The notes below the pieces were generated by a model. It saw only the letters and a program-made list of their open reading frames with translations, was not told where the DNA came from and searched no databases. A DNA stretch of 64,000 bases, taken from assembly GCA_003427395.1 (NCBI GenBank), contig BFEA01000021.1, positions 3,853,064 through 3,917,063 on the forward strand, written 5' to 3'. Shown in pieces: positions 47,982-48,655 of the stretch. A program made the translations under genes and the position numbers. Each line of letters begins with the position of its first letter. Position 1 is the stretch's first letter. Source of the DNA: Chara braunii. Taxonomy: Eukaryota; Plantae; Charophyceae.

Positions 47982-48655
47982 GGGCACCTGAACTTACAGA
48001 GCTCGCCCAACTTAGCCAGGCCCAAAGTCAGAATACCTAAACTTATAGACGTTCTGACCTGGCCAGGTATACATAAACAGAGGGCACAACTACTTTTCTC
48101 TTCTTTGGGCGTATGACTAGACCACTCTAGTCGCCCTGAACTGTTTAAATAGCCAACTTATGTATACCTCTCTGAACTTAGTCTTCAAAGGGACATAAGG
48201 TTGAGCCGCTCAACTTGGAACATTGCTCAGCCTGCCCACATTTACCTTCAGTTATATCTCTAAATTATACTTTCTTCAATTGTGATAAGCTATAGTCAGG
48301 CTACCTAAACTTATAGAGCGGCCTGGCTAGCCTGTTCATAATAGCATAGTAATACTGTATAGCCAAGTTATATCCATTGGGTTACAACATGTGCGAGGCA
48401 TTGGGTCAGACCACCTAAACTTATAGAGCGGTCTGATCCTTAGCCAGGATTATTCCCTCAGAACGAAAACAGGAGAAGGGCCGAACCACCTAAACTTATA
48501 GAGCGGTTCGGACCTCCTCATTCAGAATCAAAGAAACTGAGAGAACTCCAAACAAAACGAGGCACCTATACTTATAGAGCGCCTTGGGTCCCTGAAAGTC
48601 ACTCACAGTCAAACCCTCACAGGTCAGCGCAGCCAGGACACCTAAACTTATACAA
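47982..48655. repeat. Array of ~7 stem-loops with conserved loop ACCTAAACTTATAGAGC
   Basis: Copies at ~47982, 48027, 48293, 48403, 48479, 48558 and 48637 (partial). Confidence 0.88.

Follow-up and report, generated by a model that had tools for sequence, protein, structure and literature searches.

The window analysed here, a stretch of 64,000 nt from Chara braunii (contig BFEA01000021.1, positions 3,853,064 to 3,917,063), is made up of nested Ty3/gypsy elements. One of them, element B, is on the minus strand and spans 27.6 kb with its gag-pol; its domains run from protease through RNase H to integrase, which is the gene order of Ty3/gypsy elements, and its Gag aligns with that of element A. 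The 5' LTR of element B (45350..52835, minus strand, 7486 nt) is accompanied by a primer binding site of the tRNA-Asp (Athila/Calypso) type at 45330..45347 (minus strand), which matches at 17 of 18 positions and follows CGACA-GG. Further along the same strand are a degenerate gag, protease and RNase H region with stops and frameshifts (41199..44993), the integrase (31519-32859), and a second ORF that is Gag-like and weakly matches a zinc knuckle (28232..31400). No intact zinc knuckle was found in the Gag of element B, and the knuckle of the second ORF has three of the four ligands. The start of the 3' LTR (25227..26178, minus strand, 952 nt) is 95.6% identical to the 5' LTR and is interrupted by element A. 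In the broken frames scanned, the RT core of element B gave no Pfam match; the protease returned 15 hits, one of which is the window's own, and all 14 named relatives are Chara braunii proteins. A hAT DNA transposon occupies 33900-36550 (minus strand) within the pol region.

Element A has an LTR of about 11.3 kb (13912-25226), and its primer site, which follows CGATA-GG at 13909, matches the tRNA-Asp motif at 18 of 18 positions. Its Gag is 39% identical to that of element B over 201 residues. A second Gag-like zinc-knuckle ORF is again found after the integrase (2600-4400, minus strand), with pieces that are 26-33% identical between the two elements. A third element begins on the plus strand at about 59835 and contains, about 2.9 kb in, a degenerate large-subunit rRNA fragment (62760-62991, plus strand, Rfam E 2.7e-27). 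Elements A and B resemble the Athila/Calypso element FIDEL, as described in the available part of its report (PMC2844528), in the tRNA-Asp primer site (17/18 for B and 18/18 for A against the FIDEL motif), the long LTRs and the extra ORF after pol, a likeness of landmarks and not of an RT tree. They differ from it in having LTRs of 7.5 and about 11.3 kb, as opposed to more than 1.2 kb, and an extra ORF that is Gag-like with a zinc knuckle instead of env-like.

Both LTRs are very long and have a variable 5' half and a conserved 3' half. They have in common a 60-nt block (77%) and, close to the LTR end, a 235-nt block. In three elements (45463-45694, 14015-14245 and 57804-58105), about 230 nt near the end of the LTR are 69-77% preserved, and a high degree of structure is predicted for them; a 45-70-nt repeat occurs in all three LTR regions (50277-50493, 23646-23713 and 61693-62090) with RNA reads of both polarities. 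In LTR A, seven antisense donor-like sites lie at 17293-23938 (plus strand), each followed by a pyrimidine run and with AAT microsatellites between them; they possibly mark a captured or antisense multi-exon transcript.

In LTR B, the low-copy variable part is 49128-52100 and the high-copy conserved part is 46150-49127. The summed contig depth in one DNA run, which is not equivalent to copy number, is about 1,000-93,000 over 46150-49127 and 5-66 over most of 49128-52100. The variable half contains, on the element-sense strand, a tandem series of degenerate U6-snRNA-like units (51013..51941, minus strand), four detected by Rfam and two more by alignment or by eye. Three of these have E-values of 5e-9 to 1e-5, all under the gathering score, and one has an E-value of 0.69; the units are about 65-70% alike, are low-copy in DNA contigs and have almost no RNA reads. 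The first unit is also present in the 3' LTR (25227-25284), and the U6-like array is thus older than the insertion of element B. The occurrence of Pol III RNA-like sequence within an LTR is reminiscent of Cassandra, whose LTRs contain 5S sequence (PMC10886601), and the units would be a U6 counterpart of it. Cassandra, Helenus and Ajax are, in the part of that source available, non-autonomous elements of miniature size that contain 5S or tRNA sequence, and the word 'snRNA' does not occur there. Element B, in contrast, is a 27.6-kb element with gag-pol in which only the U6-like units are derived from an RNA gene.

The conserved half of LTR B contains an array of stem-loops, 4.2-4.9 kb into the LTR, and the summed depths place it in the high-copy portion. 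The original prediction had assigned the array to LTR B, and this is correct, given that the tRNA-Asp-type primer site at 45347 on the minus strand sets the LTR at 52835 to about 45350. The recurrent 17-mer has seven matches in the window with zero to two mismatches, all at 47986-48656, where 0.06 would be expected, and none of 100 shuffles reached seven. With pairs restricted to at most 60 nt, the array folds about 5-6 SD better than dinucleotide shuffles on either strand. The array is a real feature of the LTR, and the hairpin structure itself is very probably genuine. Model R1 found no further strong units over the rest of the window. The five arm pairs that were originally proposed, including CCGAACC/GGTTCGG and GAGGC/GCCTT, were all recovered with 6-10 consecutive pairs each, and the spacers are indeed unlike one another, giving short alignments at most.

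The Rfam scan that had been suggested for the array returned nothing below E 1.3 over 47350-48800, the four weak hits including no spliceosomal snRNA model; the best E-value in a second family copy (L001, see below) was 4.7. The array thus matches no Rfam family, be it IRE, snRNA, snoRNA, ribozyme or miRNA; ARAGORN detected no tRNA. No RNA gene was matched by the hairpin array itself, and the U6-like units are a feature separate from it, with nothing seen that links the two. Two apparent resemblances, one between the plus strand and U12 snRNA and the other between the loop and a telomere repeat or TATA box, were considered and discarded, since the inner stem swaps sequence and Rfam is empty.

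The minus-strand consensus was drawn from alignment A1, which comprises 15 units (six from the window and nine from L001) and leaves out the remnant unit and two extra rows (L125 and L504). It starts with a lower stem of 5-9 bp, which is followed by two pairs and a bulged U and then by a 3-bp stem that closes the UAAGUU hexaloop. The 17-mer had been described as a near-invariant loop; its recurrence holds, whereas its status as a loop does not, because it contains a covarying 3-bp upper stem (CUA/UAG, CUG/CAG, CCA/UGG or CAA/UUG) together with two further pairs, possible on the minus strand alone, and the near-invariant part is limited to six nucleotides. Nor is the closed segment 17 nt long in every unit, as the unit at 48035 closes 16 nt.

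All units are read on the minus strand. The unit at 47970..48018 has a UAAGUU loop and, by a double change, a CUG/CAG upper stem; that at 48019..48065 has the same loop on CUA/UAG and is one base shorter. A degenerate extra unit with a CAAGUU loop (48186..48240), which was missed by model R1, has an L001 orthologue near position 125. The unit at 48287..48335 corresponds to CCA/UGG in L001, and that at 48397..48445 to CUG/CAG with a G-U pair replaced by C-G. In the unit at 48472..48520, the pair 48482/48510 is C-G in the window and T-A in most family reads. The unit at 48548..48596 has a UAAGUA loop and a CAA/UUG orthologue. Finally, a remnant at 48624..48669, containing the seventh match (48640), is truncated: compared with L001, about 200 nt are missing from the window, and with them the right arm of the seventh unit and three more units.

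Upstream of the array, a TATA-like motif at 48833..48839 (minus strand, about 180 nt away) is preserved in L001 and is a putative promoter. The 60-nt block common to LTRs A and B (48855..48914, minus strand; 16640-16699 in element A) lies just upstream of the array, is also present in L001, and is predicted to form a 9-bp hairpin with a 5-nt purine-rich loop. Just downstream, the region 47480-47770 (minus strand) contains four U-rich motifs that resemble Sm sites, together with an 80-nt unit in duplicate (67.5%); it is predicted to fold and has no Rfam match.

A pattern scan of metagenome contigs yielded four loci, one of which, L001, is a genuine and independent family copy with 72-79% identity to the window. 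The other three are single matches with neither homology nor array, and the hits of model R1 to L002-L004 follow from the pattern that was used to fetch those loci; five single matches in viral contigs likewise have no homology or array. L001 contains nine strong units and one degenerate unit, with one extra unit upstream compared to the window, so that the unit number differs by copy (7-8 in the window, 9-10 in L001).

Over the 15 aligned units, 85.9% of cells are paired, compared to 69.8% after shuffling and 24-47% in slid registers, and 12 of the 14 pairs exhibit changes on both sides. The covariation score of 0.612 (0.318 shuffled) was matched by none of 500 shuffles; weaker measures are less decisive, the pair count being reached by 25 and the pair-type count by 155 of 500, and as the units are related to each other these fractions are not probabilities. 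The sample amounts to two full arrays of non-independent units, among which duplication and conversion spread changes, and at least three distinct upper-stem swaps remain after this is taken into account. A comparison of four orthologous hairpins gives 35 of 35 pairs forming in L001 (for the orthologue with a 3-nt insertion, the upper five pairs alone were counted): 20 are the same, eight have changed on both sides, six on one side, and one is a repaired mismatch. At 25% divergence, 25.5 pairs and 1.1 double changes are expected from simulation, and each observed value was reached in 1 of 20,000 runs. The hexaloop differs at only 2 of 24 sites between the orthologues. Among the 40 of 62 contig variants listed, which carry no linkage information, 48482 is C>T in 7148 of 7630 summed depth and its partner 48510 is G>A in 7859 of 7883. 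The two-sided changes, the covariation score and the intact orthologous pairs support the original suggestion that selection may act on a single-stranded structure.

The strand on which this structure would form is indicated by the wobble pairs. Across the 15 units, the non-Watson-Crick cells comprise 29 G-U pairs on the element-sense (minus) strand and 4 G-T pairs on the plus strand (p 0.006 against base composition, with units treated as independent). The division is 15 to 0 within the 17-mer and 14 to 4 in the lower stems alone (not significant, p 0.25 against composition), and all six one-sided orthologue changes keep the minus-strand pair. This runs against the earlier proposal that the plus-strand or antisense molecule is the folded one. 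The G-T pairs cited for that proposal do exist, but some are private to the window copy, as at 48326, where the family has A in 6951 of 6996 summed depth and the T-A pair is restored. At loop position 16, G>A is common (20699 of 45082 at 48428), and it gives a wobble pair on the minus strand only.

Stranded RNA sequencing, another of the tests originally proposed, provides partial agreement. Poly(A) RNA reads over 48275-48535 number seven in run X5, 16 in X7 and 229 in X6; they are mostly 80-95% alike to the window and hence derive from other copies, and the library polarity is uncalibrated. In X5 and X7 nearly all first mates are on the plus strand, corresponding to minus-strand RNA if the library is of the dUTP type. 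One polarity thus prevails in two of the three runs, whereas X6 has reads on both strands, with the other polarity in excess at 46151-47982. The array is probably transcribed, mostly in the element sense, with some antisense transcription possible, and the wobble pairs make it likely that the hairpins fold on the sense RNA of the element. Antisense to element B there are a donor-like site at 47880, a conserved acceptor-like site at 48984 and an ATG at 49112; an antisense gene built from these was rejected, as it has no ORF conserved between the window and L001.

By analogy, a loop that stays fixed while its helix is exchanged, in a number of copies that varies, is the pattern of a protein-read site. 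The reading that we prefer, and to which we give about an even chance, is that the array would be a family-specific, multivalent RNA landing pad for an element-encoded protein, serving packaging or export. The hairpins would fold on the element RNA and not on DNA, and the binder would recognise the loop and the helix shape, with several units together providing avidity. The binder would be encoded by the element itself, either as Gag or as the second Gag-like zinc-knuckle protein, a candidate binding partner, and its binding would single out the RNA to be packaged or exported. What favours an element-encoded reader is that the two families have unlike motifs at corresponding places in the LTR, as would be expected of a code that shifts along with its reader. 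Element A has in that place a different repeated stem motif (15543..16250, minus strand) of at least ten units within a higher-order repeat of about 161 nt, although its structure is weakly supported (6-bp stem, no double changes, z -1.7). The difference between A and B, which concerns one pair of families, is a hint of co-evolution. The array may lie outside R, and it may be inside an intron, as splice-like motifs flank it on both strands.

The main rival explanation is that the same RNA hairpins would be read by a host protein, which would affect splicing, intron retention, 3'-end formation or stability of the LTR transcript. All of the structural evidence fits such a reader equally well, and a minus-strand donor-like site at about 48853, found in element B, element A and L001, together with acceptor-like sites near 47405 and 47141, would suit a role in splicing. 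A host reader would be expected to recognise a shared motif, yet element A differs at the same place, and a spliced RNA joint is absent among the joints listed (15 of 165 in one set and five in another); we therefore hold a host reader to be possible but rather doubtful. Base pairing through the 17-mer, as a small-RNA decoy or snRNA mimic, had been suggested in the original prediction and is very unlikely. It might draw on the U6-like units in the same LTR and on the plus-strand 17-mer, which we take to be loosely like the 5' end of U12 snRNA, but it is probably not the plus strand that folds, Rfam is empty over the array, and compensatory swaps within the 17-mer, of which six nucleotides alone are fixed, would destroy pairing to any fixed partner. 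A comparably slim chance is given to loop-loop kissing sites for RNA dimerisation. Retroviral dimerisation hairpins have conserved loops on stable stems near the 5' end, and the array likewise repeats a conserved loop on stable stems close to the 5' end of a retroelement; against this, the loop is not self-complementary, and the scans that were run gave no stem-closed partner loop.

Two further explanations would dispense with an RNA-level function. Duplication, template switching and gene conversion could keep the arms complementary without selection, leaving the array a neutral relic. Template switching at hairpins is able to create double changes, and the units do duplicate and get lost, with joints that jump ahead or back inside the array. 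Such switching would, however, produce perfect palindromes with no wobble bias towards one strand, as opposed to the count of 29 to 4, nor does a relic account for one-sided changes that always spare the minus-strand pair or for a loop so well preserved in copies that are 72-79% identical, and we regard this explanation as improbable. Slightly lower in our estimation is a DNA-level signal, either plus-strand cDNA hairpins acting in reverse transcription or transcription-factor or anti-silencing sites on the 6-nt core. The location in the LTR near the conserved TATA-like motif would suit it, and single-stranded DNA also allows G-T pairs; a double-stranded site, however, needs neither exchanged complementary flanks nor strand-biased wobble, and of the two strands, it is the first to be copied in reverse transcription that folds less well.

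Read as a landing pad for an element-encoded protein, the array has its closest parallel in viral packaging signals. As described in the available part of PMC3593212, the coat protein of STNV recognises a loop, whatever the sequence of the stem, and the STNV B3/ACAA and MS2 packaging signals, like the array in LTR B, are sets of numerous stem-loops that share a loop but are free in stem sequence. Unlike them, the array is clustered in a retrotransposon LTR and has a hexaloop and a bulged U, and the binding of a capsid protein to it is hypothetical.

TAR and RexRE are LTR-borne retroviral RNA response elements. HERV-K RcRE likewise sits inside the LTR, and retroviral LTRs can hold RNA elements that are read by a protein of the element, according to the portion of PMC6916052 available; structured RNAs in an LTR or transcript that are read there by an element or host protein (PMC6916052, PMC12786077) are thus a second parallel. 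Retrotransposon export elements of the same sort, in the available text of PMC12786077, are the IAP RTE, the MusD MTE, Cer1/CERV and Ty1 Gag-aided export. Those are single branched folds or hairpins, as opposed to an array of variable number, and the words 'hairpin' and 'stem-loop' do not occur in that text. In element B, the array lies inside the LTR, and its sense-RNA character is suggested by the wobble bias and two of three runs of uncalibrated polarity; no Rec- or Rev-like gene was identified in the element, and the second ORF is a candidate for an export protein. By analogy the array may work like a multiple packaging signal or an LTR response element, with membership of either class being putative.

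Arrays of family-specific repeats are also found in the Retand/Tat/Ogre group of non-chromovirus Ty3/gypsy elements, and in the portion of a 2025 survey available (PMC11963269) their function is called unknown and neither 'hairpin' nor 'secondary structure' is used. Those are head-to-tail sequence repeats, mostly located between pol and the 3' LTR, unlike the array in element B, which lies in the LTR and has dissimilar spacers and a conserved structure. Among the titles and abstract openings surveyed, no account of such an array was found; the Chara genome paper or its supplements may describe these elements.

A more speculative extension, which we consider possible but on the whole unlikely, is that each family would have its own hairpin array at one fixed LTR position, as a swappable RNA barcode. 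It would resemble an MS2-type tag array and would co-evolve with the Gag or second Gag-like zinc-knuckle protein of the family, sorting the RNA to the family's own particles or export route. In plants, direct studies of the RNA export of such elements are lacking, according to the available part of a 2025 review (PMC12786077). Little is known of how plant LTR retrotransposons choose their own RNA and export it. A compact covarying motif in a high-copy family with named candidate partners would make RNA selection directly testable, and a new hairpin-protein pair could become an RNA tagging tool.
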